In this document: positions 3,333 through 21,100 of the stretch, one piece after another
Numbering within the stretch: the first letter of the stretch is position 1
How the letters are laid out: each line of letters opens with the position of its first letter
Origin: Gammaproteobacteria bacterium
GTDB taxonomy: Bacteria > Pseudomonadota > Gammaproteobacteria > JAKDMP01
Assembly: GCA_050739575.1 (NCBI GenBank)
Contig: JBOIBN010000001.1
Coordinates: forward strand, 26,608-90,607
Direction: 5' to 3'
DNA: 64,000 nt
Program-made: the position numbers and the translations under genes
The notes under the pieces: model-generated
Seen by the model: only the letters and a program-made list of their open reading frames with translations
What the model was told of the DNA's origin: nothing
Database searches by the model: none

Positions 3333-3932
3333 ATGGCTGTAACGGCTATTTCAATGCGGTCCATCTCGGATCGTAATTTGCGCGGCGAGGTTGCCGCGCT
3401 TATTGCGAGCGAGAACGGCCCGTCACAGGCGACCTTGTCGCGCGAGGCGGGACTGTCGCCGAGCGCGCTCAACCAGTGGCTGCGGGAACGCTACGCGGGC
3501 GATAACCTCGCGGTCGAGATCAAGCTTTCGCAGTATCTCGAAACCTATTACGCCCGGCTCGCGCGCGAGAAGGCGTTGCCGCAGGCTCCGGGCTGGATTG
3601 CGACGCCGACCTCGGAGCGGATCCTGCAGACGCTCGGCTATGCGCAGATCGCGGGCGACATCGTGATCGTGTACGGCGGCGCGCTCGACGAGCAGGACTG
3701 GGGCATTGACGGCGCCGGCGCGCCGGTCGCCATACGCTCGGAGAATCTGTATTCGGGCGCCATCGATGCGCTGAAGGTCGGCTTGTGGGGCCTGCGCTGG
3801 GAGCAGCGCTTCACGCTCGATGCCGTTGATCCGGCGACGCTCGCGCCGTTCCTCACTTTCCACGAAGATACCGACATGGCGCCGGCCGACGGCGTGATCG
3901 ACATGTCGGAAACCGACGAACTGCAGCAATAG
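3333..3932 (+). CDS. MuB-like protein, N-terminal HTH domain retained, Walker A degenerate (probable non-ATPase remnant)
   Basis: LNQWLRERYAGDNLAVEIKLSQYLE aligns to MuB ISSFINDKYNGDNERVSQMLQRWLE. The segment aligning to the MuB P-loop IAVVCGNPGVGKTEAA reads IVIVYGGALDEQDWGI. The protein is 199 aa against ~312 aa in MuB. Confidence 0.55.
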   Translation: MAVTAISMRSISDRNLRGEVAALIASENGPSQATLSREAGLSPSALNQWLRERYAGDNLAVEIKLSQYLETYYARLAREKALPQAPGWIATPTSERILQTLGYAQIAGDIVIVYGGALDEQDWGIDGAGAPVAIRSENLYSGAIDALKVGLWGLRWEQRFTLDAVDPATLAPFLTFHEDTDMAPADGVIDMSETDELQQ

Positions 3933-3940
3933 GAGTCACC

Positions 3941-4162
3941 GTGAACGAATTCAACATCAAGCCGGCAAGCGATGCAGTGAGGGTGCGCGATCCGCGCACC
4001 GGCCGCGCACTCGCCAAGGACGGCGAGACCAAGCCGCGCAACAGCTACTGGCTGCGGCGCCTGCGCGACTGCGACGTGGTCGAAGTCGCCGCGTCCACTT
4101 CATCCGCATCCAAGGCCGCTCCCGTCAAGGCAGACGCCGAACAGAAAGGAGGCAAGTCGTGA
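3941..4162 (+). CDS. Small conserved protein found upstream of the sheath gene in Mu-like tails (DUF2635-like)
   Basis: GGAG lies 7 nt upstream of the GTG start. The motif VRDPRTGRAL...YWLRRLRDCDVV is typical of the small gene preceding the sheath gene in Mu-like prophages. Its stop overlaps the sheath start. Confidence 0.5.
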   Translation: MNEFNIKPASDAVRVRDPRTGRALAKDGETKPRNSYWLRRLRDCDVVEVAASTSSASKAAPVKADAEQKGGKS

Positions 4163-5625
4163 GCATCGAGTTCAATACCATTCCGGGCGACGTCCGCGTT
4201 CCCGGCGTCTATGTGGAGTTCGACTCCAGTCAGGCGCAGACCGGCCTCGCCGACGACAGCTATACGATCCTGGTGATCGGGCAGCGGCTTGCGAGCGGCA
4301 CCGTCGCGGCCGGCGTCCCGACTGCGGTGCAGAGCGCGAGTCAGGCGCAGCAATTCTTCGGAGCGGGCTCGATGCTCGCCAACATGCTCACGGCGCTCAA
4401 GGTCGCGAACCCGTACACCGCGTGCGTCGCGATCGCACTCGATGACGACGAGGCGGCCGTCGCAGCGACGGTGACGGCCACCATTACCGGGCCGGCGACG
4501 GGCGCCGGAACGCTGGCAATGTACATCGCCGGTATCGCCGTGAAAATCGCAGTGGCTTCCGGCGACAGCACGACGACGACGGCAACTGCGCTCGCGGCGG
4601 CCATCAATGCGAACGGAAACCTTCCCTTCACGGCCGGCGCCGCCGCCGGCGTGGTCATGCTCACGGCGCGCAACAAGGGCGTCGCCGCGAACTACATTGA
4701 CGTGCGCCTGAACTATTACGCGGGCGACGTGACTCCGGCCGGCGTGGCGGTGGCGATTGCCGCCGGAACCGCGGGCACGACCAATCCGGACATCACGACC
4801 GCGATCGCGGCAATGGCGGACGACTGGTACCAGGCGATCGCGATGCCCTATACCGATTCCGCGAACCTCGCGGCACTGGAGCTAGAGCTGATTTCGCGCT
4901 GGGGCGGCACGCGTCAGATCGACGGGATTGCCTATGCCGGCTACCGCGGAACAGCGAGCGCGACCGACACCTTCGGCGCCACGCAGAATTCGCCGTTCGT
5001 ATCGTGCATGGGCACTTCGATCTCGCCCACTCCGCCGTGGATCTGGGCCGCAGTCTACGCCGGCGTCGCGGCGGCATCGCTCGCGACCGATCCGGCGCGC
5101 CCGCTGCAGACGCTCACGCTTCCCGGCATATTGCCGCCCGCACGGGCCGATCGCTTCACCTTCGACGAGAAGAATCTCCATCTGCACAGCGGCATCGCGA
5201 CTTTCAACACAGCGCCGGACGGCACCGTGCAGATCCAACGCGAAGTCTCGACTTATCAGTTCAACGCCAATAAAATCGCCGACACTTCATTCCTGGACAT
5301 CACCACACCGGCGACGCTCTCCTACTTCCGCTTCACCACACGCGCGGCCATGACGGCAAAGTTCCCGCGCGAGAAACTCGCGAGCGACGGCACGACCTAT
5401 CCTCCGGGCGCGAACGTGGTGACGCCTTCGGTTCTGCGCGCGGAGCGCATCTCGATCGCCCAGGACTGGGTGAATGCCGGGCTGATGGAAGACCTCGCGC
5501 AATTCAAACAGGATCTGGTAATCCAGATCAATGCGACCGATCCCAACCGGGCCGATTCGCTCAGCTCGCCGAATCTCGTCAATCAGCTCCGCATCATGGC
5601 GGACCTGGTCGAATTCATCCTTTAA
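4159..5625 (+). CDS. Contractile tail sheath protein (Mu gpL-like)
   Basis: The N-terminus MSIEFNTIPGDVRVPGVYVEFDSS...ILVIGQRLASG is collinear with Mu L [24 protein letters not shown]...GLFIGQKLSGG. Confidence 0.9.
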   Translation: MSIEFNTIPGDVRVPGVYVEFDSSQAQTGLADDSYTILVIGQRLASGTVAAGVPTAVQSASQAQQFFGAGSMLANMLTALKVANPYTACVAIALDDDEAAVAATVTATITGPATGAGTLAMYIAGIAVKIAVASGDSTTTTATALAAAINANGNLPFTAGAAAGVVMLTARNKGVAANYIDVRLNYYAGDVTPAGVAVAIAAGTAGTTNPDITTAIAAMADDWYQAIAMPYTDSANLAALELELISRWGGTRQIDGIAYAGYRGTASATDTFGATQNSPFVSCMGTSISPTPPWIWAAVYAGVAAASLATDPARPLQTLTLPGILPPARADRFTFDEKNLHLHSGIATFNTAPDGTVQIQREVSTYQFNANKIADTSFLDITTPATLSYFRFTTRAAMTAKFPREKLASDGTTYPPGANVVTPSVLRAERISIAQDWVNAGLMEDLAQFKQDLVIQINATDPNRADSLSSPNLVNQLRIMADLVEFIL

Positions 5626-5637
5626 GGAGGCTAGACC

Positions 5638-6000
5638 GTGGCAAACAAATTATTCGGACGCGCAGTGGTGGCCTACGACGGCAACCAACTGCGCGTGGAC
5701 AAGGGCGCGAAGCTCAACACCGGCGGCATCAAGCGCAACACCGTGGTCGGGATGCAGGTCGAGGGCTTCGCCGAGGAGGCCGTCGAGGCATCCGTCGAAG
5801 TCTCCATCTTCATGGATGCGAGCACCGACCTCGACGCGCTCAACGCCGCGGAGGACGTGACCGTGCTGTTCACCGCCGACAGCGGCCAGCAGTACGTGCT
5901 CTCGCATGCGTGGCTCGCCGAACCGACCGAGGCCACGGCCGCCACCGACGGCGGCAAGGTGCCGCTGAAGTTCTGCTCGGCCAGCGCGGAGAAACTCTGA
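5638..6000 (+). CDS. Tail tube protein (Mu gpM-like)
   Basis: A 120-aa ORF directly after the sheath gene, with a GGAGG Shine-Dalgarno. Size and position match Mu M. Confidence 0.75.
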   Translation: MANKLFGRAVVAYDGNQLRVDKGAKLNTGGIKRNTVVGMQVEGFAEEAVEASVEVSIFMDASTDLDALNAAEDVTVLFTADSGQQYVLSHAWLAEPTEATAATDGGKVPLKFCSASAEKL

Positions 6001-6299
6001 TGGCGAACGTGAAGGGAACGCTCAAGCACGGGCTCAAGGTCGGCGACAAACTGCACAAGGATTACGAGCTGCGCGAGTCCACCACGCAGGACATGTTCGA
6101 TGCGGAGGCGGATGCGCCGAGCGATCGGCGCCTGGCGTTCCAGGGCGCGCTGCTCGCGCGCCAGATCGTCAAGCTCGGCGACCTCGGCGGCCCGCTCGAC
6201 TTCTCGCTGATCGGCAAGCTGCATCCGGAAGACTTCACGGATCTGATCGCCGATGCCGCCGCAGCGGATGCAGCGGGAAAAAACGCACCGGCGAGCTGA
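6001..6299 (+). CDS. Tail assembly chaperone (Mu gp41-like, lambda G-like)
   Basis: A 99-aa acidic ORF between the tube and tape measure genes. The ATG at 6001 overlaps the tube stop. It ends just after a G GGA AAA AAC slippery run. Confidence 0.7.
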
Positions 6300-6445
6300 A
6301 GGGCCTGCATCAAAAAACCCTTTTGCTCGCGCGCAAAACCGGCTGGACCCGAAGCGAGATTCTTGGGCTGTCACGTTCGGAGTTCGATTTTTATGTAGAG
6401 ACGCTGATCGAGTGGAGCACAGAGGAAGACGAATACGATGAGTGA
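6001..6445 (+). CDS. Predicted -1 frameshift fusion product of the tail assembly chaperone (G-T-like)
   Basis: Slippery heptamers G GGA AAA and A AAA AAC are in the zero frame at 6275-6284. The -1 frame runs open for 55 codons (KKRTGELKGLHQKTLLLARKTGWTRSEILGLSRSEFDFYVETLIEWSTEEDEYDE) and ends at 6445, overlapping the tape measure start. Confidence 0.55.
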
Positions 6446-8408
6446 CAGCACCCTCGATCTCGCCATGCGCATCACCGCAATAGATGTCTTCAGCGGGGTG
6501 CTGAATCGCTTCCGCACGCAGATCATGGGCGCGGGGGCGCAGTCCAAAGAATTGATGCGCGACTACGACCTCGCGCTTTCCAACATCCGCAAGGGGTTCA
6601 ACGGGCTCGCAGCCGCCAAGTACGGCTTCGACAAAATGAAGCCCGCGCTCGACAACGCTGCGAAGCTCCAGCAGGCGACGCTTGCCTTCTCGCAGATCCT
6701 GCAGGGCGCCCATCCGAACGCGAAGAAGCTCGCCGATCAAATGCAGCGCGTCAGCGACAATGCCATCAGCGTGGCGCGGCACATGAAATACAGCGCCATC
6801 GAGGTCATGGACGTCTCGCGGCTGCTCTACAAGTCCGGCATTCCGCTCGCGGCCATTCTCGACCGCGTGGGCAAAAGCGGCAAGACCATTTACGGCCTCG
6901 CCTACTACACCGAGGCGCTCGCCGAGACGCAGGGCACGACGCCGCAAGAGACGGCGGCGCAGATCGGCAACGTCGGCCATGCGTTCCGGTTGAAGCCGAA
7001 CCAATATGCGCGCGCCATCAACCTGATCACGCAGGCGCAACCGGTCGCATCCGGTTCGCTCACCGAGCTGTTCCACAATCTGGCCCAGTCGGGCGCCATT
7101 ACCAAATACCTCAGCCATACGAGCCTGCTCAGCCTGCTGGCGGGACTTAAAACGGTAGCGCCGCTTGGTGAAGAGGGGGGTACCGATTTCGCGACCATGC
7201 TGGAGACCTTCGGATCCATGCGGGTGCGCGGCAAAAAATATCTGCAAAAATATGGACTGAATTTTTACGATAAACAGGGCCAATTCCTGGGCCTCGATAA
7301 ATCGTTAGACGTGCTGCGTAAAACCATTGCGGCGCGGCACTGGACGCCAGAGCAGATAAACAAGATTTTGGGACCCATCTTCGGGCAACAGGGACTCAAG
7401 GCCATCGCGCTGATGACCGCGCCGAACGCGCCGGGAGTGAAAAGTTACCAGGAAATCAAAAAATCGATCACGGAGCAGGCCAACCTCAGTCAGCAACGGA
7501 TCGAGTGGGAGAAGGGTTACCTCGCGCAGCTTTCCGAGCTGAAGACTACGGGGCAAACGTTGAGCGCGGTGCTCGCAACGCCGGTCCTGAGCCCGACCGT
7601 CGGCGTGATGAAAACGCTGAACGACTGGATGGGCGATTTCACGCTCGCCGCCCATCATCACAAGTCCATCGGCATCGCCGCGACGGCCGCAGGGGGCGCC
7701 GCGCTTGCCGCCGCCGTCGGCTATTCGGCCTGGAATCTGATCAAAACGATAAAGCCCGGCAGCCACGTACTGCGCAGCCTGCTCGGCAAAGGCGGGGGCT
7801 TGGCCGCCCGCATCGGCGAAGGCAAGCTTATCCAAAAAGTCGCCGGGGTGCCGTCGGTCTTCGTGGTGAATATGCCCTCCGGTGGGCTTCCGGCGCCGGC
7901 CGGAGGCATCCCCCCGGGCGGCTCACGGATTTTGCTGCCGCCATCATTCGGCGAGAGAGGCGCGGCGATCGCGGCAGGCAGCATTGCCGCGCGCCTGAAG
8001 GGCTTCTTGCTGGCGCCGGCGTTGGCATCCATCAGCTCGGCAAAAGGATTGAAGGCGACCGCGGGCGCGGCCGGGAAACTCGTCGGTGCATTGGGACTCG
8101 CCGCCAGCGCCGGTTGGGCATTAGGCAAGGCGCTCGACCGCATCCCCGCCGTGCACAGTTTCTTCGACAAGGAGTTCCAGAACAGTCTGGCGAATGCAGT
8201 GATCACGGCTGCTTCCGGCGCGAACAAGAATGCGGTCGAATTGACCCGCGGCGCGCAACTGGAGCGCGCATGGCGCACGCAGCACAAGGACTTCAAGGGC
8301 GCGATCAAGATCACGATCGATAGCAAGGGCAAAGCGCATGTGACCGAGCTGCGCAGTAGCACACCGCGCGTGAACCTGAGCGTCGGCCATGCGATGAGCA
8401 CGCCGTGA
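6438..8408 (+). CDS. Tail tape measure protein
   Basis: 656 aa, helical and Gly/Ala-rich, located after the chaperone and its frameshift extension. Confidence 0.85.
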   Translation: MSDSTLDLAMRITAIDVFSGVLNRFRTQIMGAGAQSKELMRDYDLALSNIRKGFNGLAAAKYGFDKMKPALDNAAKLQQATLAFSQILQGAHPNAKKLADQMQRVSDNAISVARHMKYSAIEVMDVSRLLYKSGIPLAAILDRVGKSGKTIYGLAYYTEALAETQGTTPQETAAQIGNVGHAFRLKPNQYARAINLITQAQPVASGSLTELFHNLAQSGAITKYLSHTSLLSLLAGLKTVAPLGEEGGTDFATMLETFGSMRVRGKKYLQKYGLNFYDKQGQFLGLDKSLDVLRKTIAARHWTPEQINKILGPIFGQQGLKAIALMTAPNAPGVKSYQEIKKSITEQANLSQQRIEWEKGYLAQLSELKTTGQTLSAVLATPVLSPTVGVMKTLNDWMGDFTLAAHHHKSIGIAATAAGGAALAAAVGYSAWNLIKTIKPGSHVLRSLLGKGGGLAARIGEGKLIQKVAGVPSVFVVNMPSGGLPAPAGGIPPGGSRILLPPSFGERGAAIAAGSIAARLKGFLLAPALASISSAKGLKATAGAAGKLVGALGLAASAGWALGKALDRIPAVHSFFDKEFQNSLANAVITAASGANKNAVELTRGAQLERAWRTQHKDFKGAIKITIDSKGKAHVTELRSSTPRVNLSVGHAMSTP

Positions 8409-8410
8409 TG

Positions 8411-8749
8411 TCAGGGCGTTACGAACATCGCGCCGGTCCAGTAGGAATAGACCTGGCCTTTCGGTCTGATCTTGACGAGACGGCCGTCCGTGGTCATGTC
8501 TTCGATATAGACCGCCTCTCCCGACGTGAGCGCAACGCATTGGCCCGCGTTGACGCCTTCGGCAAGAAGCTCTTCGGCGGTCTGCTTGTCGCCCTCCGCC
8601 GCTATGGTTGCGATCTTGTCGAAAAGCGCCTGAGACTGGCATCCGGCGACGTTCGCGTTGATATGGCTCGGTCCTGTCGGAGCGGCTTGCGCGGACGTGG
8701 CCGAAGCCAGCGCCGCCAGCGCGGCTATGAAAAAGGCTTTACGCATCAT
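8411..8749 (-). CDS. Small secreted protein (signal peptide, 2 Cys), antisense moron inside the tail operon
   Basis: It exactly fills the 380-bp gap between the tape measure and N genes on the opposite strand. The Shine-Dalgarno is GAGGGGGA. The signal peptide is MMRKAFFIAALAALASATSAQA. GC3 is high, like that of its neighbours. Confidence 0.6.
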   Translation of the reverse strand: MMRKAFFIAALAALASATSAQAAPTGPSHINANVAGCQSQALFDKIATIAAEGDKQTAEELLAEGVNAGQCVALTSGEAVYIEDMTTDGRLVKIRPKGQVYSYWTGAMFVTP

Positions 8750-12074: not shown

Positions 12075-13156
12075 TGCCGTTTTCACGCCCCACGCTCGCT
12101 ACGCTGATCGACCGCATCGCCGGCGACATCGAATCGCGCCTGCCCGGCTCCGACGCGCGCCTGCGCCGCAACCTGCTGACGATCCTCGGCCGCGCCGAGG
12201 CCGGTGCGACACACGGGCTCTACGGGCACCAGGAATGGATCTCGCTGCAGGTCATCATCGATACCGCCGAAAACGACTGGCTGGAGCGCTGGGCGGCGAT
12301 CTGGACGGTTGGGCGCAAGGGCGCCGGTGCCGCGCAGGGCAACCTTTTACTCACCGGCACGAACGGCGCGATCCTGCCTGCCGGCAGCAGCTATACGCGC
12401 AGCGACGGCGCGCTCTACACCACCGATGCCGATGCCACCATCGTCGCCGGTACCGCGACTGTAGCCGTGACCGCATCGCTTGCCGGCGTCGCCGGCGACA
12501 CCGATGCGAATTCCACGCTGACGCTGGTGTCGTCCGTGACCGGCATCGATGCGGCGGCGACGGTGGATGCGGACGGCATCGAGGGCGGCGCGGACATCGA
12601 GGACGACGATTCGCTGCGCGTGCGCCTGCTCGATCGCATCGGCGCTCCGCCGACCGGCGGCAGCGATCCCGATTACGTGGCGTGGGCGGAAGAAGTCGCC
12701 GGCGTCACCCGCGCCTGGGTGTATCCGAAAGAGCAAGGCCCCGGCACGGTGGTGGTGCGCTTCGTGACCGACGACGCGCCGGGCGGCTTGATTCCCGACG
12801 ATGCGACCGTGCAGGCGGTCGCCGCCAGCATCGTCGCCAAGCGCACGGTGACGGCGGACGTGTTCGTGTTCGCGCCGATCGCCGATCCGCTCGATCTGAC
12901 CATTCAACTGGTTCCCGACACTATCGCGGTGCGCGCGGCCGTCACCGCCGAGATTGCCGACATGATTCTGCGCGAGGCCATCCCGGCCGGGACGCTCAAT
13001 GGCAGTGTGCAGGTCGGCGAGATCATCCGCAGCCACATTGACGAGGCGATCTCCATCGCTGACGGTGAGACCGATCACACGTTGCTGGTGCCGACCGCGA
13101 ACGTGCAGCCGGCCATCGGCCACATCGTGACGCTGGGAACGATCACATGGGCCTGA
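12074..13156 (+). CDS. Baseplate J-like protein (Mu gp47)
   Basis: 360-aa ORF whose length and position (after gp46, before gp48) match Mu gp47. Confidence 0.8.
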   Translation: MPFSRPTLATLIDRIAGDIESRLPGSDARLRRNLLTILGRAEAGATHGLYGHQEWISLQVIIDTAENDWLERWAAIWTVGRKGAGAAQGNLLLTGTNGAILPAGSSYTRSDGALYTTDADATIVAGTATVAVTASLAGVAGDTDANSTLTLVSSVTGIDAAATVDADGIEGGADIEDDDSLRVRLLDRIGAPPTGGSDPDYVAWAEEVAGVTRAWVYPKEQGPGTVVVRFVTDDAPGGLIPDDATVQAVAASIVAKRTVTADVFVFAPIADPLDLTIQLVPDTIAVRAAVTAEIADMILREAIPAGTLNGSVQVGEIIRSHIDEAISIADGETDHTLLVPTANVQPAIGHIVTLGTITWA

Positions 13157-15669
13157 GCGCGGATACCTACGCCGCCACCGAACGTGCGCTGCTGCCGCCC
13201 GGCCGCGCGCTCGCCGATGGCGGCGAAGGCACGCTCACGGATCTGCTCGAGGCGCTCGCCCAGGAATTCTCGCGCGTGGATGCGAGCGGCGACGTGCTGC
13301 TGCAGGAAGCCTTCCCCGACACCGCCGTCGAGCTGCTTCCGGATTGGGAGCGCATCGCCAAACTGCCGTCCGCCTGCACGCCGGCCGGCCAGACGACGGC
13401 GCAGCGGCAGGCGTCGGTGGTGCGCAAACTCACGGCCAACGAAGCGCAGACGATTGCGTTCATCGTTGCACTCGCCGCGTCCTACGGCTATACGATCTCG
13501 ATCGTGGAGCGCCGGGCGCTGCGCTTCGGCTACAACGCCTATTGCGGCTACCCGTTCGGAAGCTGGGACTGGCAATTCGTGTGGGAGGCGCACAGCGAAG
13601 GCACGCCGATCGAAATGCTGTATTTCGACACGGGCCATTGCGGCGACGATTTCGGCGCCTTCGGCGATCCGACGATGGAGTGCCGCCTGAAGACCGGCAA
13701 CCAGAGCCACATCATTCCGCGCTTCTGCTACGACTTCACCGGCTACAACCTGTTCCAGTATCGCGACATCGGTCGGCTGTTCTGGATCGGCCGCGCCGGA
13801 TCTCTGTTCCAGGATACTGCCGGCACGGTGCCCGTCACTGCCTACGGCCAGACCGTGGGCTTGATTAAAGACCTCTCAGGTCACGGCGGCGATCTCATGC
13901 TCACGGTCGGGCCGGGCGCCGTGTACTCGCAGGACGAGAACGGCTACGACTGCCTGGTGAGCGCGGGCGATTCGATGTACAGCGGCTCCGATGCCGATCT
14001 GCCGATGGGCGCGAACAACGTCCACATTGCCGCCACGGTGGCCTTCGATCAGTTCACCAAAAACGCGAGCTGCTTCAACTACGGCACCAGCGCGATCCTC
14101 GAAGAGCGCGGCATCGGTCTCGACAATTCGACGCCGCAGAAAATGACCGCGAATATCTACAACGTCCAGGCCGACGGCCAGTCGCCGATCGCAGGCCAGC
14201 CTTACGTGATGGAGTGCGATGTGCTCTACCACACGGTCAGCCTGTATATCGACGGAGTCTTCGAGAGCAGCGCCACCGGCGTCGTCAATACGGTCAGCGG
14301 CGCACTCACGCTGTTCGGTTCGGCGTTGCCGGGAAAACTGTTTACCGGAAAGTTTTACGGCGGCGTGATCTTCGGTGGGAGTTCCTGGCCGCGCGCGGCC
14401 GTGACGCGCTGGCTCGGAGCGCTCGCGGGACAGACGTTTCCCGGCTATGACCTGCTGCTGCTCGACCAGGCTTTCGCGCGCAGCTCTCAGGCGACGTGGA
14501 CGGACCCGGCCGGGATCCTCCAGACGGCGAGCGCCAATGCGGCCCGCTATAACAATGATCGCGACACCGGCGAGGCTTACGGACTGCTGATCGAGGAGCC
14601 GCGTACCAATCAGATTACCGATCCGTTCAATCCGACGACGTCGAATTGGGTGCAGACCAATGCGGCCGCGGCGCTCGCCCAGGGCACAGGCCCCGACGGT
14701 TCCAATTCGCTCATCAAGCTCACGACCGATGTCGTCGCGACCGTCGAACCGCACATGTACAACATCACCTGCCTGATCCCGGACCCCGCGCCCGACGTCA
14801 TCAGCGTTCTGACGTGGGTGCAGCGCGGCAACTACGACAACGGTGCGTCGCCGACGATCCGGATGCATTCCAAACAGACGCCGGCGCCTGGAGCGGGCAC
14901 GCCGGTCGATGTGAGCGCGCGTATTCTGCAAGGCCCCGGCAGCGTAGATATCGCCGACTTTGACGCCGGGCTGGTGCAGGTATACGGGCTGTCGCAGACC
15001 GAACCCACGTTGATCGAAACACGCACGATGATTCCCTTGATCGCTGGTCAGACCTACATCCTCACCTGCCGCAACCGCGATCAGGCCATCGGCGCCCAGG
15101 TGGGCGACACCACCTTTTGGTACGCCCAGCAGTTCGAGTTCGCCGATTTCGCGAGCACGTTGATTCCGAGCGGCGTCGCCACGCGGCCCGGCGACGATGT
15201 CGCCATTCCCCCGACTTGGGCGGCGACCGAAGCCGGGTGCCTGTGGGGCGAATTCCGCGTCCGGAATCTGCCGCCGAATCCGTATCCGACATCTTCGGGC
15301 ATCGTTGCAGCACTGGCATACACGGCCGCGAACACCTTCATCGGAGTCAATGTGGATTCCAACGGCCAGTTGATTATTACCGGCCGTCTTGCCGGCAGCG
15401 CTTATCAGCAGGCTTATACGCCGAACGGAAGCATTGTCGCGGGGCAGAGCTACAAATTCGCCGCGTCCTGGTCCCCGACCGCGTTTCGCCTTTCGCTCAA
15501 CGGTGCGGCCGTGATCAGCGCTGCGCAAACGCAAGCGCTGCCGACCGCGCCCAGCCAGTTCTTCGTCGGTTCGATTTCCGGCACCTATTACCTCAACGGC
15601 ACCGTGCGTTCGCTGCGCTATGCCCCTTTCGCGCCCGCCAACGCGCAGCTGCAGGCGCTCGCTTCGTGA
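13147..15669 (+). CDS. Mu gp48-like (DUF2313) N-terminal domain fused to a long tail-fibre / receptor-binding region with two concanavalin/LamG-like segments
   Basis: The first ~190 aa match Mu gp48. The protein then continues for ~650 aa with LYIDG and LNGTVRSL lectin-like signatures. It is 840 aa in total. Confidence 0.65.
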   Translation: MGLSADTYAATERALLPPGRALADGGEGTLTDLLEALAQEFSRVDASGDVLLQEAFPDTAVELLPDWERIAKLPSACTPAGQTTAQRQASVVRKLTANEAQTIAFIVALAASYGYTISIVERRALRFGYNAYCGYPFGSWDWQFVWEAHSEGTPIEMLYFDTGHCGDDFGAFGDPTMECRLKTGNQSHIIPRFCYDFTGYNLFQYRDIGRLFWIGRAGSLFQDTAGTVPVTAYGQTVGLIKDLSGHGGDLMLTVGPGAVYSQDENGYDCLVSAGDSMYSGSDADLPMGANNVHIAATVAFDQFTKNASCFNYGTSAILEERGIGLDNSTPQKMTANIYNVQADGQSPIAGQPYVMECDVLYHTVSLYIDGVFESSATGVVNTVSGALTLFGSALPGKLFTGKFYGGVIFGGSSWPRAAVTRWLGALAGQTFPGYDLLLLDQAFARSSQATWTDPAGILQTASANAARYNNDRDTGEAYGLLIEEPRTNQITDPFNPTTSNWVQTNAAAALAQGTGPDGSNSLIKLTTDVVATVEPHMYNITCLIPDPAPDVISVLTWVQRGNYDNGASPTIRMHSKQTPAPGAGTPVDVSARILQGPGSVDIADFDAGLVQVYGLSQTEPTLIETRTMIPLIAGQTYILTCRNRDQAIGAQVGDTTFWYAQQFEFADFASTLIPSGVATRPGDDVAIPPTWAATEAGCLWGEFRVRNLPPNPYPTSSGIVAALAYTAANTFIGVNVDSNGQLIITGRLAGSAYQQAYTPNGSIVAGQSYKFAASWSPTAFRLSLNGAAVISAAQTQALPTAPSQFFVGSISGTYYLNGTVRSLRYAPFAPANAQLQALAS

Positions 15670-15687
15670 ACATCATAGGAGATCATC

Positions 15688-16218
15688 GTGGACTATCCAG
15701 TATCTGATGACACCGTCGGCCTGGTGGCCGGCAAATTCAGCGACGGCGATCCGACCAGCGGCATCCCCGCATCGCGCTGGCCCTCGGAAACGGCGGACGC
15801 CATCATGGACGAGCTGATCGCCGTTATCGTGCAGGGCGGCCTCACGCCCGCCGAAGCGACGCTCACGCAGGTGCGCGACGCGATTCTCGCGATCGTCACC
15901 GCGGCACTGGGTACCGCAATTCCCAAGGACAAGTTCAATGCGACGGCCGATCCGGTCGTGACCAACGACAGCAGTCAGGGCTACAGCGAAGGCTCGCGCT
16001 GGTTCAACACGACGACGCCGGACGTGTTCGTGTGCATCAATCCTGCTGTCGGTGCCGCGGTGTGGCTGAAGTCCACGCTCGAACTCGCGGATCTCGCGAA
16101 CTTCGCCGTTAAAAATGCCGACAACGAATTCAGCGCGGGCCAGAGCGTGACCGGCAATCTCACGATTGACGGCAACATCTACTCGACCGGCGTGGTCCAG
16201 GCCGGTGTGACGCTGTGA
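15688..16218 (+). CDS. Putative tail fibre-associated protein
   Basis: 176-aa ORF directly after the gp48-fibre fusion gene. The sequence NLTIDGNIYSTGVVQ is fibre-like. GGAG precedes the GTG start. Confidence 0.4.
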   Translation: MDYPVSDDTVGLVAGKFSDGDPTSGIPASRWPSETADAIMDELIAVIVQGGLTPAEATLTQVRDAILAIVTAALGTAIPKDKFNATADPVVTNDSSQGYSEGSRWFNTTTPDVFVCINPAVGAAVWLKSTLELADLANFAVKNADNEFSAGQSVTGNLTIDGNIYSTGVVQAGVTL

Positions 16219-17198
16219 GCCTTGCCGCGCAAAAGTTCATAGACGCGCTCGGCTTCGACGTGGCTGATATCTTCGAGCCGTGGGAATCGGGCGATCCGCA
16301 TGCGGCCGACACCGGTTTCCAGAACGCGGCCGGCGACGATCTGTCCGCCGTGCTCGCACCGCTTTCGGTCGGCTCCGCGATCGATCACGACACCATGTTC
16401 CAGAACGGCGCCGGCACCGACCTGAACGCGATCTTCGCGAAGAAGGGCTCGCGCAGCGGATCGGCGATCAGCGCGACAATTCCCTCGACCGCGAACGCCG
16501 TCACCCATGCGCCCGGCGGTACGGCGAGCGCGGACCTGACCTGCGTCCCCGCCGGCGGCTCCGGAACGGGCTACACGTTCTTGTGGACCGTCGTGAGCGG
16601 CAGCGCGACGATCACCAATGCGACCTCGCCGACCTGCACCGTGCAGGAAGCGGTGCCCGGTACCGGTTCCATCACGAGCACCTTCAAGTGCCATGTCGTG
16701 GATTCCGCCAGCAATTCCTGCGACAGCAACAACGGCGTCGTTACATTCAAATATGTCGCCGTCGGCGGCAGCGATTGCCTGCGGCTCGATCAATGGCTCG
16801 CGCCCACGGTGCAGGTGCGCGACGCCCACAAGGGGATGTTGCTCGATGCGCGCACCGACGCCGACGAATTCTGCCGGCTGCCGATCGTGAACGATCCGAC
16901 CATCATCCTGCAGCTCTGCTACCGGCTCATCGCGGCCAACGGATACGCGATCGAGTGCACCGTGAGCACGCCATTCACACTTCCCGACGGAGAAAGCTAT
17001 CCGGCGCCGCGGATGCTCGGCCGGATGTTGCTCTGTCACGAAACCCGTGAATGGTCGCCGATCGTGACCGTCCAGTCATTGGGACGCTGCGCGGCCATGC
17101 TCATCAGCCTGGGCGGCGCGAGCTATGCCGGCGGCGACGAGCCGAACAAGCGCAGCTATTCCCACAACACCCGCAAGTTTGGACCCATCTCACCGTAA
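16215..17198 (+). CDS. Hypothetical tail fibre-region protein (Cys-rich, Ig-like segments)
   Basis: 327 aa. The start overlaps the upstream stop. It lies within the fibre module. Confidence 0.4.
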   Translation: MSLAAQKFIDALGFDVADIFEPWESGDPHAADTGFQNAAGDDLSAVLAPLSVGSAIDHDTMFQNGAGTDLNAIFAKKGSRSGSAISATIPSTANAVTHAPGGTASADLTCVPAGGSGTGYTFLWTVVSGSATITNATSPTCTVQEAVPGTGSITSTFKCHVVDSASNSCDSNNGVVTFKYVAVGGSDCLRLDQWLAPTVQVRDAHKGMLLDARTDADEFCRLPIVNDPTIILQLCYRLIAANGYAIECTVSTPFTLPDGESYPAPRMLGRMLLCHETREWSPIVTVQSLGRCAAMLISLGGASYAGGDEPNKRSYSHNTRKFGPISP

Positions 17199-17663: not shown

Positions 17664-19214
17664 ATGAGTGCCCCGACCCCGGTCCAGTCGAAATCGAATC
17701 AAAGCTCCAGCGCGGCAACGCTGGGCATCGTCTTCGATGCGGCGCCGGGGGTCGGAAACATCCTGATCGCGCAGGTGAATTTCGTCGGTACCGGCGCATC
17801 CGATCCAGCCGTCGCGCCGGACGGCACCTGGTACCCGCTCCTGAGCGGTTTGAATTACGGCACCATCTCCGGGTACAACGGTTGGCAGGATATCTGGTAT
17901 CACGAAGTCGAGAGCGGCGAAGCCAATTCCTACACCTTCGGCATCGGCGCCGCGACGCCGACCATATGGTCGGTGGTCGTGGACGAGTATTCCGGAGTGG
18001 ATGTCGCGAGCGTGCTCGACGTTGCGACAGTCCTCACGGCCACCGGCAACGGCAAGACGTTCGCCGCTCCGGCCAACACGACGCTCGACGCCAATGCCCT
18101 CGTGCTATTTTGCAACGTCTATTACGACGGAGCCAATCAGGTGTACACCGCGCCGTCCGGCTATTCGCAAGACGGCCTGAACTCGGTCGCGGGCGCCAAA
18201 AATGCAATTTGTTCGATCGCTCAAGCGACCGCAGGTGGGACGGGCACTCCCTCGGCTTCGATCAACGGATCCGTAAACAAGCTGTGGGGAGTCGCGCTGC
18301 TGGCCTTGAAGGCGAGTACCGCCGCACACGATTATGCGGCGGCCGCCGGAGCGTCTTACGCCCTCACCGGCGCCGCTGGCGGCACTGTGCAACGCATCGC
18401 AGCGGCCGGCGCGAGCGTGGCGCTTGCGGGTGCATCCGCCGGATCGGCTCAACGCAGCGGTGCAGCCGGCGGCGTATTCGTCGCTGGCGGCGCGGACGCC
18501 GGCATTGTGCTGCATTGGCTCATTGCCGGCGCCGGCGCCGCGTTCGCCGGAGCGGGCTCTCCTGCAGGTACCGCCCGGCGCGCGGGCGCTGCGGGTACAG
18601 CGTTTGCGCTGGCCGGTGCGGATGCTGCAGGCGCGCGGCGCAGCGGTGCAGCCGGCGGCGTGTTCGCATGGAGCGGTGCGCAGGCGACGATGCGGCTGCA
18701 CCTGTTCGTTGCGGGAGCCGGCGCGACTTTCAACTGGGTCGGTGCAGGTGCCTTCGGCACGGGCGTTCAGCGTTATTTCGGTGCGGCTTCCGGTGCCACA
18801 TTCGCGATCGCTGGCGCCCACGCCGTGATCGTCCTGCATTGGCACATCGCCGGTGCGGGTGCCGTTTTCGTCGCCAATGGCGCCGCTGCCGGGAGCGCGC
18901 AACATCGCGCCGCGGCCGGGGCGGACATGACGCTTGCGGGGAGCGCTGCAGCTTCAGCGCGGCGCGTCGGTGCGGCCGGCCCCGCATTCTCCACACAAGG
19001 CGCGGCGGCCGGATGGGTGGTGCGACTTTACGTCGCTGGCGCCGGGGCCGATTTCGAATGGCTGGGCGCGCCGGCCGGAACTCTTTTCAGCGGGCGCCGC
19101 GACTATCACGCGGTCACCGCGGTGGATCGCTCGCCGCGCTACGCGCTCTCGATGCAGCCCGGCATTCAAAGCGCCATTAACGGCGGCATTAAAGCCGTCT
19201 TCATCGAGGATTGA
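17664..19214 (+). CDS. Tail-region protein with ~12 tandem ~21-residue Ala/Gly repeats (AGAGAxF...)
   Basis: The N-terminal 220 aa are unique. They are followed by repeats such as AAGGVFVAGGADAGIVLHWLI and AGAGAAFAGAGSPAGTARRAG. Confidence 0.5.
   Translation: MSAPTPVQSKSNQSSSAATLGIVFDAAPGVGNILIAQVNFVGTGASDPAVAPDGTWYPLLSGLNYGTISGYNGWQDIWYHEVESGEANSYTFGIGAATPTIWSVVVDEYSGVDVASVLDVATVLTATGNGKTFAAPANTTLDANALVLFCNVYYDGANQVYTAPSGYSQDGLNSVAGAKNAICSIAQATAGGTGTPSASINGSVNKLWGVALLALKASTAAHDYAAAAGASYALTGAAGGTVQRIAAAGASVALAGASAGSAQRSGAAGGVFVAGGADAGIVLHWLIAGAGAAFAGAGSPAGTARRAGAAGTAFALAGADAAGARRSGAAGGVFAWSGAQATMRLHLFVAGAGATFNWVGAGAFGTGVQRYFGAASGATFAIAGAHAVIVLHWHIAGAGAVFVANGAAAGSAQHRAAAGADMTLAGSAAASARRVGAAGPAFSTQGAAAGWVVRLYVAGAGADFEWLGAPAGTLFSGRRDYHAVTAVDRSPRYALSMQPGIQSAINGGIKAVFIED
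18340..19080 (+). repeat. Degenerate 63-bp tandem repeat array (~12 units) inside the 17664..19214 gene
   Basis: Repeated gcngccggngcngg...ttcg... units are visible in the DNA and as 21-aa units in the protein. Confidence 0.6.
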
Positions 19215-19516
19215 ACGTGGCCACCATCTACATCGGCCGAGACAATCCGTTCAAATTGCAGGCGTCGGAAGACGGCGCCTCGATCGACCTGAGCGGCGTC
19301 ACCAAGATGGCGGTACGCGTCGGTGCAGCCGATACCGATTCCGATGCGAATCCGATACTCTTCGACTGGAGCGCCGGCGACGGCGTCGTCAGCATAATCG
19401 TCGGGCTCGTCCCCCAATTGAGCGCAGGCGCGAAACGGCTGCGTCTCATCGCCTATTCAGACGCATGGCCCGATGGGATCGTGCTGGGCGATCTTCCCGT
19501 CGATGTCACCGCGTGA
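19211..19516 (+). CDS. Hypothetical protein (101 aa)
   Basis: The ORF overlaps the upstream stop. The start codon is uncertain (TTG or GTG). Confidence 0.3.
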   Translation: MNVATIYIGRDNPFKLQASEDGASIDLSGVTKMAVRVGAADTDSDANPILFDWSAGDGVVSIIVGLVPQLSAGAKRLRLIAYSDAWPDGIVLGDLPVDVTA

Positions 19517-19544
19517 TTGGCCTCATCAACTTTGGAGCATCCCC

Positions 19545-20678
19545 ATGAATACCCTAAAATCCATCGGCTGCGCGATACTCAAAATTTTCGGGCATCCGTG
19601 TACGCAACCGCCGATGCCTTCCGCATTGCCGCGCCAACGCGGCGTCGTTTGCGTGTTCGGCGGCGCCGGCGGTGTCCAGCCGGGGATGCTGCAAACGCTG
19701 CGCGATACGTTCGGGCCGAACTGCAACAGCGTGCGGCTGTATCTTCACCTAAAGAATGTCGCCGCTGCCGCCAAGATCACGCTCGCCGGAGCCGAGCAGC
19801 TCGCTTATGCCTGGGCGGACGCAATGCTCGACGAGGCTTCGAAGCTCGGCATGAATTGCTGGATTCACCGCCGCTACTTCTACATGCCGGACGGCACGCT
19901 GATTGATCGCACGAGTCCGGACTTCTGGAACAATGTGAACGGCCAATTCGACCAGGCGCTCTCGCAGGTCACGGCAATGGCCACGCACTTCCACGCCCAC
20001 GGTGCGGAACTGGCGGGCTACGACATCATCAGCGAGCCCGTCGCGATCGTGAACGGCGTGGACCAAGTGCCGCCGGGCTATCTCGCGCGCCAGATCCAGA
20101 TCCTCGACGCGCTCGACAGCGGCGATGCCGCGCTCACGTCGAAGAACGGCACGCGCTACGCGATCGCCAAATTCGCCCCGTGGGCCGGTGCGGTCGGCTA
20201 TGCTGGCCAGCAGCCTGTTCCCGGCTTCCCGCGTCTCGTTTACGGCGTCCACTTCTACCAACCCAGGCCGTCCGTCTATGCGGGCGTCGAGAAACCCTAC
20301 GGCTTCCCCGGTCCCGGCTGGCCGTGCACGATTGGCACGACGGCATGGAATGCGGCCGAGTTGCAGAAGGTGTTGCAGCCGGCTCTCGACTTCGGGTCCA
20401 CCTACGGCGTGCGCATGAGTCTGAGCGAGTTCAGCTACGCCCGCTGGAGCGCCGGCGGCGAGCAGTGGCTGAGCGACCTCATCGGCATCGTCGAAGCCGC
20501 CGGCTGGGACTGGAACTATTTCATGGTCGGCGCCGCGCCTGGCGTGGTCGCTCAATGCTGGGCGGCCGAATACGATGCCTCCTTCACCCCGGCCGCCTTC
20601 GGCCTTCCGGGCGAAGTCGGCATCGGCGCATCGCCGCGCGGCAAAGCCCTAGCCAGCATTTTCCAGGCCATCAAGTAA
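19545..20678 (+). CDS. Glycoside hydrolase family 5-like protein (cellulase superfamily), last gene of the element
   Basis: GGAGCA lies 6 nt upstream of the ATG. The candidate acid/base Glu is in YDIISEP (GH5 NEP position). The candidate nucleophile Glu is in MSLSEFSY. VHFY lies between them. Confidence 0.45.
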   Translation: MNTLKSIGCAILKIFGHPCTQPPMPSALPRQRGVVCVFGGAGGVQPGMLQTLRDTFGPNCNSVRLYLHLKNVAAAAKITLAGAEQLAYAWADAMLDEASKLGMNCWIHRRYFYMPDGTLIDRTSPDFWNNVNGQFDQALSQVTAMATHFHAHGAELAGYDIISEPVAIVNGVDQVPPGYLARQIQILDALDSGDAALTSKNGTRYAIAKFAPWAGAVGYAGQQPVPGFPRLVYGVHFYQPRPSVYAGVEKPYGFPGPGWPCTIGTTAWNAAELQKVLQPALDFGSTYGVRMSLSEFSYARWSAGGEQWLSDLIGIVEAAGWDWNYFMVGAAPGVVAQCWAAEYDASFTPAAFGLPGEVGIGASPRGKALASIFQAIK

Positions 20679-20689
20679 GGAGAGCGGCC

Positions 20690-20941
20690 GAACGTTGTTT
20701 GCGCAACGTCTTCGCCGGCCTGGCGATGGAAAGTATCCCGATCCGGTACACGGTGGGCGGCGGCGCCGGCGTCGAACGCCAGGAACTGATCATCCGTTCG
20801 CGCCCCGACGGCTGGACCGGTCAGGGGCGCCTTTTATGACCCTTTACAGGCCTATAATTCGTCGTTCAGGGGTCGCCGCCTGCCGTGAAATTTCTTCGCA
20901 AACCAAGTGATCCAGATTCGCAAACCAAGTGAACGCTTACA
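20690..20941 (+). repeat. Mu-type right end (attR): three transposase-binding repeats, two direct and one inverted, with a terminal ...CA
   Basis: TTCGCAAACCAAGTGA occurs at 20895-20910 and again at 20917-20932. An inverted copy, CGTTGTTTGCGCAACG, lies at ~20690-20706. The reverse complement of the terminus, TGTAAGCGTTCACTTGGTTTGCGAA, resembles the Mu L1 site TGTATTGATTCACTTGAAGTACGAAAA. Confidence 0.6.
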
Positions 20942-21100
20942 CCTCCGATTTATTCAGAGGTTCCGTGTGGTGCATGGACGCACCACCGTGAATCGAACGC
21001 GTAAGTGCTTGATTCGGCGTAAGACGAGTCCGGGCATGTGCCGGACTCATCGCCTCTGAGCAATTCACGGATGAATTGATCAGAGTTTCCTAAGACTGCT
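20942..21100 (+). repeat. Intergenic ~160-bp repeat element, copy A, abutting the prophage end and upstream of liuB
   Basis: About 85% identical to copy B. It contains the hairpin GTCCGGGCATGTGCCGGAC and the palindrome CTCTGAGCAATTCACGGATGAATTGATCAGAG. Confidence 0.6.

Follow-up and report, generated by a model that had tools for sequence, protein, structure and literature searches.

The window analysed here, a 64,000-nucleotide stretch of contig JBOIBN010000001.1 from a gammaproteobacterial assembly (GCA_050739575.1), contains a Mu-like prophage. Searches against protein families recover its transposase and regulators, followed by a contractile-tail module in the order sheath, tube, chaperone, tape measure. 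The features that matter for the tail assembly chaperone are listed below.

67-360: Ner-like gene (family search)
460-945: CII-like gene (family search)
942-2960: MuA transposase (family search)
3941-4162: DUF2635, the Mu gp38 family (family search)
4159-5625: tail sheath (family search)
5638-6000, + strand: tail tube, 120 aa (Pfam Tail_tube, PF10618, 101.5 bits; phrog_185)
6000-6299, + strand: Gp41_Mu chaperone G, 99 aa (Pfam PF23746, 61.5 bits; phrog_508)
6275-6281, + strand: heptamer 1, G GGA AAA, in X XXY YYZ phase, 15 nt before the G stop
6278-6284, + strand: heptamer 2, A AAA AAC, in X XXY YYZ phase, overlapping heptamer 1, 12 nt before the G stop
6281-6445, + strand: T extension in the -1 frame, 54 sense codons and TGA
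6291-6330, + strand: predicted hairpin of 12 bp, candidate stimulator
6438-8408, + strand: tape measure, 656 aa (Pfam PhageMin_Tail, 38.3 bits; phrog_4704)
Downstream of the tape measure: homologues of gp43, gp44, gp45, gp46, gp47 and gp48 (family search)

The chaperone gene G extends from ATG 6000 to TGA 6297-6299 and encodes 99 aa. The stop codon of the tube gene overlaps its start in an ATGA-type junction (..CTCTGATG), and a GAGGAAG sequence lies 10-16 nt 5' of the tape measure ATG at 6438. Residues 8-93 of the 99 match Pfam Gp41_Mu (PF23746) at 61.5 bits, against a gathering cut-off of 27 bits, which places the protein in that family; it also matches phrog_508, a group of tail assembly chaperones, with an E value of 2.4e-21. 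The 19 G homologues collected are of comparable size, from 95 to 111 aa. Between the genes for the major tail protein and the tape measure, a frameshift is a conserved feature, and its direction is -1, -2 or +1 depending on the phage (PMC5009743, PMC2628397). The two overlapping reading frames in the window are placed between the tube and tape measure genes, exactly where this conserved frameshift would be expected.

The last codons of G read GCA GCG GGA AAA AAC GCA CCG GCG AGC TGA. The earlier note had described the zero-frame stretch G GGA AAA AAC (6275-6284) as two overlapping slippery heptamers, and direct inspection of the sequence confirms that both are in phase; the distance of 14 nt that it gave between them and the chaperone stop is, however, 15 nt for the first heptamer and 12 nt for the second. 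The first heptamer thus sits near the 3' end of G, as is usual for G/GT arrangements. Read from 6281, the -1 frame (KRTGELKGLHQKTLLLARKTGWTRSEILGLSRSEFDFYVETLIEWSTEEDEYDE) consists of 54 sense codons and a TGA at 6443-6445, which together make up the 55 open codons reported previously, and it does overlap the tape measure start at 6438, by 8 nt (ATGAGTGA). The product of a -1 shift would be a GT protein of 148 aa, join(6000..6281, 6281..6445). The -1 frame opens as early as 5969, well 5' of the heptamers, and from 6253 to 6441 the +1/-2 frame is open too.

Two other genes of the tail module are of some interest in their own right. Immediately after the tape measure gene, at 8411-8749 on the minus strand, there is a leftward ORF of 112 aa that has no family match. 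A leftward gene occupies the equivalent position in phage B23 (26716-27213) and in L033 (12420-12782), a complete Mu-like phage that is the closest relative, and the ORF is thus a conserved moron-like insertion within the rightward tail operon. Further downstream, 13147-15669 encodes a gp48-like baseplate protein of 840 aa with a weak C-terminal match to Laminin_G_3 and concanavalin-like domains. The gp48-like gene of L033 encodes only 194 aa, and in the window the protein has probably been fused to a fibre or receptor-binding module.

Judged by the window alone, the co-occurrence of a heptamer and an open -1 frame is at chance level. The G+C content of the sequence is 63%, XXXYYYZ heptamers occur 127 times on the plus strand in any phase (2.0 per kb; 18 of them are GGGAAAN), and 43% of in-frame positions in the long ORFs are followed by 54 or more open codons in the -1 frame. 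What raises this site above chance is its position, within the final 25 nt of a gene flanked by tube and tape measure, along with its conservation in relatives.

For that comparison, 27 related loci were fetched in addition to L033. In-phase G GGA AAN, where N is A, G or C, is present at 18 loci, representing 14 distinct sequences when the window is counted, and identity in G across the distinct related loci is 37-68%. These loci span different orders of Gammaproteobacteria as well as viral contigs, complete phages included. The region around the slip site could be aligned over 106 nt without gaps for 13 distinct sequences, with L033 considered in addition; its slip site is identical in kind. 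GGGAAA is invariant and in phase in all 13 aligned loci and in L033, while mean nucleotide identity downstream of the heptamer is approximately 57% among the 13. A slippery site missing from close relatives would have spoken against the proposal; instead, in-phase GGGAAA is found in all 14 distinct loci of the clade.

The frame that follows the heptamer is conserved as well. No internal gaps are needed to align the -1 extensions, which have in common the peptide ..(V/L)L(L/M)(L/I)xxxTGWxxxEIxxLPxxEFxxY.., so that relatives retain the shifted-frame peptide as well as the slip site. Past the G stops of the 13 sequences, the -1 frame contains no stop codons, the zero frame contains 11 and the +1 frame contains three. 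Mean pairwise amino acid identity among the 13 loci is 49% in the -1 frame and 33-34% in the zero and +1 frames. By codon position of the -1 frame, substitutions fall 30%, 28% and 42% in first, second and third positions, respectively, and in the window the G+C content by codon position between 6300 and 6437 has a coding pattern solely in the -1 frame. Taken together, these patterns show purifying selection on the -1 frame (T). Across loci, anything from 0 to 51 nt separates the heptamer from the G stop, whereas the register of T with the heptamer is fixed; it follows that selection acts on the heptamer and T as a unit and not on the tail of G.

These data bear directly on the possibility that there is no recoding at all, in which case the heptamer would be a chance occurrence in a Gly-Lys-Asn stretch, and 6300-6437 would be non-coding spacer or a decaying remnant. 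Heptamers and long alternative frames are indeed common in this G+C-rich window, the head genes of the prophage are gone, and gene callers annotate only the 99-aa protein. However, neither spacer nor remnant would account easily for a heptamer and a -1 peptide that are conserved across gammaproteobacterial orders, viral contigs and complete phages, nor for a window copy that is undegraded relative to its relatives, and we consider this explanation very improbable.

A shift in another direction is a second possibility, and a very unlikely one. A Mu-style -2 (or +1) shift would lead into the open frame at 6253-6441 and add the extension ..EKTHRRAEGPASKNPFARAQNRLDPKRDSWAVTFGVRFLCRDADRVEHRGRRIR. 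That frame is open up to the tape measure start, and Mu, the type member of Gp41_Mu, has a verified -2 shift (PMC5009743). The Mu slip sequence CGG GGG CGA is nevertheless absent from the window; the +1 peptide, at 33% identity, behaves like a non-coding frame and is interrupted by stops in 3 of 13 relatives; at several loci the +1 frame ends before the G stop or within approximately 50 nt of it; and the G+C content by codon position contradicts coding in the +1/-2 frame. On this evidence the -1 reading is the correct one, and the openness of the +1/-2 frame is an artefact of G+C content.

It is similarly very unlikely that T is made separately and unfused, as a 40-aa product of an internal start at TTG 6323. 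An ORF at 6323-6445 does exist, and equivalent ORFs of 37-56 aa are sometimes called in relatives. TTG 6323 is, however, the sole in-frame start in T and has no Shine-Dalgarno sequence 5' of it, leaving the frame reachable only by a shift; the corresponding column in relatives is TTG, CTG, ATG, CTC or ATC, with no start conserved; and conservation extends to the 14 residues that separate the slip site from 6323, in a register fixed to the heptamer. Least credible of all is transcriptional slippage on the six consecutive A residues at 6278-6283, by which one A fewer or two extra would fuse G to T: in relatives GGGAAA precedes G or C, so that only three A stand in a row, too few for the polymerase to slip, and yet T keeps the same frame; known sites of transcriptional slippage in bacteria have runs of at least about 8-9 identical bases. 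Some analogous two-product genes do use transcriptional slippage (PMC5009743).

The T domain can also be followed beyond the clade. A GT profile built from 18 sequences of this clade was compared with a Mu-type GT profile comprising Mu, B23 and three viral contigs, and hhalign aligned the two with a probability of 99.3%, collinearly over residues 6 to 134 and thus through the slip site into T. Restricting both profiles to T still gives an E value of 3e-5. Among individual sequences, the -2-frame T of B23 (..ARATGWAPHDIDRLPLRRL..) matches T with an E value of 4e-4, while the T of Mu itself matches weakly (E 0.027), so that the link to Mu rests on intermediates such as B23. These T profile matches argue that the T domain is homologous across the family, with Mu as a divergent member and the direction of the shift dependent on the clade. 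The earlier expectation that the -1 extension should resemble known T sequences is thus borne out by the extensions of relatives and, more weakly, by the T regions of the Mu type.

Outside such profiles, T is difficult to detect. A word-indexed protein search with the T domain returned no candidates, and an exhaustive T-domain search returned six weak matches, of which four are orphan T ORFs and the other two are repeat proteins that look unrelated. Among called proteins, T-like peptides occur solely as orphan ORFs of 37-56 aa and as a 39-aa ORF called in L033; near absence from called proteins is what is expected of a frame without its own start. T alone has no match in Pfam and a single match in PHROG, to an HTH DNA-binding protein with an E value of 0.32, which is not meaningful. 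Two proteins found with 6281-6442, P0021 (269 aa) and P0026 (206 aa), contain at least four tandem copies of a unit of approximately 45 residues that shares the T-domain core, with repeat cores ..RRxxGWTVxxALGLDP.. and ..ILLLAxKxGWTVAH... These repeats hint that a small helical motif of wide occurrence forms the core of the T domain. As modelled with AF2 (pLDDT 85), GT has a beta/alpha G part followed by three helices; the T part lacks alignment depth, and the modelled T helices are suggestive only. Compared with the PDB, the model has no significant match, the top entry being the HK97 tail assembly chaperone 2OB9 (E 0.45).

Very probably, then, the site serves a Mu-like contractile-tail module as its G/GT recoding signal, with a -1 shift giving rise to both G and GT. 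The central claim of the earlier note, a programmed -1 frameshift in the tail assembly chaperone, is supported by the conservation of the heptamer and of T. In the proposed mechanism, translation of 6000-6299 would, on the majority of ribosomes, yield the 99-aa chaperone G. A smaller share would slip by -1 on G GGA AAA, with GGA (Gly) in the P site and AAA (Lys) in the A site; both tRNAs would re-pair, on GGG and AAA, and decoding would continue at 6281 in the -1 frame. This would append a T domain of 54 residues, and the 148-aa GT would end at 6445, atop the start codon of the tape measure gene. By extrapolation from lambda, perhaps a few percent of ribosomes would slip, and the frequency of slippage would in turn fix the ratio of G to GT. 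In the G/GT class, the two products arise in a fixed ratio and tail assembly requires both. The roles of the two products here may also follow the lambda model, in which G binds the tape measure protein and T recruits the tube protein (PMC5009743): by analogy, G and the G part of GT would coat or bind the tape measure protein, and the rarer T part would recruit the tube protein.

Slippage would take place at G GGA AAA itself, and this first heptamer is the probable main shift site. Both overlapping heptamers are present in the window as described before, but just the first, as G GGA AAN, is conserved in relatives; A AAA AAC is specific to the window and occurs in no relative. In Escherichia coli, A_AAA_AAC and G_GGA_AAC are reported to be low-efficiency sites, and G_GGA_AA(A/G) to be more efficient (PMC4066793). 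The second heptamer may contribute extra slippage. The junctions predicted for the two differ by a single residue, ..GK-K-RTG.. for the first and ..GK-N-RTG.. for the second.

A structured RNA downstream of the site, which the earlier note had suggested seeking in 6285-6330, was found in the window in modest form. The predicted hairpin at 6291-6330 begins 9 nt past the first heptamer and 6 nt past the second, and the G stop codon lies inside its stem. Its energy is approximately -19 kcal/mol (z -1.9), equally stable structures arise in 7 of 200 shuffled sequences, and it ranks at the 11th percentile when set against 50-nt segments of the 5 kb around it. Among relatives it is not kept in register: RNAalifold predicts no pairs and no covariation in the 13 aligned slip regions, and when the window hairpin is imposed on the alignment, 48.7% of cells are paired, no better than in shuffles or slid controls. 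There is a weak trend toward downstream stability across 14 relatives, with a median percentile of 0.21 and a combined p of approximately 0.02 that is inflated by relatedness. Rfam searches at the gathering threshold recover two tRNAs only in the whole window, and searches of 6150-6550 at E values up to 10 return no matches. An upstream Shine-Dalgarno-like stimulator is not obvious in the window either. In stimulated -1 cassettes of the IS3/dnaX type, a conserved hairpin or pseudoknot follows the heptamer at 5-9 nt. A role for the window hairpin as a frameshift stimulator is possible.

The element that carries this site has undergone a large deletion. The ORF at 3333-3932 is chimeric, with a junction near 3684-3698: residues 7-117 correspond to the N-terminus of MuB as far as the start of the Walker A motif (B23 AVI04921, E 4e-20), and residues 123-193 correspond to the C-terminus of the gene preceding gp38 (B23 AVI04952, E 2e-11). 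Relative to B23 and L033, approximately 18 kb are absent, comprising the MuB ATPase, middle genes, lysis, terminase, portal, protease and capsid genes. The sequence indicates that the head, lysis and middle genes were lost through one in-frame deletion. The transposase, the regulators and the whole tail module are intact, and the tail ORFs are of normal length.

In all, the element spans approximately 21.7 kb and has a 9-bp direct repeat, CCTCCGATT, at both ends, with one copy at 20942 in the window and the other 813 nt upstream of the window start in L030 (L030 3188-3221). Two copies of TTCGCAAACCAAGTGA (20895 and 20917) lie within 20895-20950, an inverted TGGTTTGCGAAT is present near the left end, and 20895-20950 is the probable right end of the element. 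The insertion lies between thiolase and acyl-CoA dehydrogenase genes on one side and methylcrotonyl-CoA carboxylase genes (21158 onward) on the other, so that genes of a leucine-catabolism cluster surround the element. Two other assemblies were compared, and both have the identical sequence. Near the right end, a tail-fibre N-terminus at 15688-16218 is the sole PHROG match between 15.7 and 20.8 kb. The ORFs at 16215-17198, 17664-19214 and 19473-20678 have no match in Pfam or PHROG. To probe the idea of a tailocin, lysis genes were sought among the ORFs at 15.7-20.8 kb; these have no Pfam match, and no lysis cassette was recognised.

The intactness of the frameshift site had been taken to argue that the tail module is under functional constraint. 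This does not follow for a head-less deletion derivative, in which an intact site could reflect a recent deletion. A recent deletion fits the data at least as well as domestication does, and it may be that the frameshift signal in this head-less element is no longer expressed or needed.

The closest characterized systems are those of the phages lambda, Mu and P2. The phage lambda gpG/gpGT frameshift was reportedly worked out by Levin et al. in 1993 and by Xu, Hendrix & Duda in 2004, 2013 and 2014. As summarised in PMC5009743, it is a -1 shift at the slippery sequence G GGA AAG. The window shares with lambda the position of the gene, a G GGA AAR heptamer near the 3' end of G, the -1 direction and a T frame that ends at the start of the tape measure gene; a conserved downstream RNA structure is not found here. 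The likeness described here is one of arrangement, and no sequence similarity of G or T to the lambda proteins came to light. Lambda has a siphovirus tail whereas the tail encoded here is contractile, with sheath and tube, and at 54 aa the T domain here is much shorter.

In Mu, gp41 (feature Mu_56 of AF083977) has a verified -2 frameshift at CGG GGG CGA (GenBank annotation; PMC5009743). The G proteins are homologous, both belonging to Pfam Gp41_Mu, with 36% identity over residues 8-82 by tblastn, and gene order is shared from gp38 through sheath, tube, gp41 and tape measure to gp43-48. The shift is -2 on a run of five G in Mu and -1 on G GGA AAA here, and G is 144 aa in Mu and 99 aa here. The comparison with Mu gp41 that had been recommended therefore holds for the homologous G and the collinear GT profile but not for the shift, which is -2 in Mu and uses a different signal. 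The arrangement is best described as analogous to that of Mu, with a homologous protein and, as far as the sequences indicate, a different recoding signal. Phage P2, with its E and E+E' proteins, is alike by description, in that it has a contractile tail and a chaperone between tube and tape measure to which a -1 shift adds a short extension. Against the corresponding Pfam family, Phage_TAC_7 (PF10109; E / 41 / 14), which has a cut-off of 25 bits, G alone scores 20.6 bits and falls below the threshold; only the GT fusion passes, at 29.9 bits in two stretches.

Not all relatives in the Gp41_Mu family use either of these signals. Seven loci lack an X XXY YYZ heptamer and have CTG GGG GAA at the equivalent position:

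L005: 3282-3428
L007: 3276-3425
L008: 3026-3175
L010: 3270-3422
L019: 3282-3428
L020: 3264-3428
L021: 1707-1850

In these relatives (5 distinct loci), it is once more the -1 frame that encodes the conserved T domain, suggesting a single-tRNA slip on the run of five G in CUG GGG GAA. Such a -1 site looks intermediate between the window site and the -2 site CGG GGG CGA, which is found in Mu, B23 and L026-L029. In phage B23 (L002, KY939598), the locus at 1847-1996 has the Mu-type site GGGGGCGA and a -2-frame T (..ATGWAPHDIDRLPL..); its annotation lists just a 'hypothetical protein Mup41', with no GT fusion. In L033 (10276-10443), the T frame is miscalled as a spurious 39-aa ORF. Two further readings can be put forward only tentatively: that the recoding signal has been replaced within Gp41_Mu around a homologous T, or that the head-less element specifies a tailocin-like particle that needs GT. 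If the signal was indeed replaced, the -1 variant on the run of five G would be an uncharacterised type of slip site, mechanistically intermediate between the other two.

The G/GT frameshift is textbook material that dates from 1993 and 2004. The site in the window is an ordinary but real G/GT frameshift, in a Mu-like prophage without head genes, and a previously unannotated member of this known recoding class. It opens no new question, and the CUG GGG GAA relatives are the sole mildly novel by-product. The gain is in annotation: the MAG record and every related contig call only the 99-aa protein, or a spurious orphan ORF of 37-56 aa, where the correct model is join(6000..6281, 6281..6445), the 148-aa GT. 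For the family, the conserved sequences point to a large gammaproteobacterial clade whose Mu-family chaperone genes rely on a -1 heptamer like that of lambda. Among Mu-like phages, members of the gp41 family would thus not all be "-2 as in Mu", which matters for the automated annotation of frameshifts.
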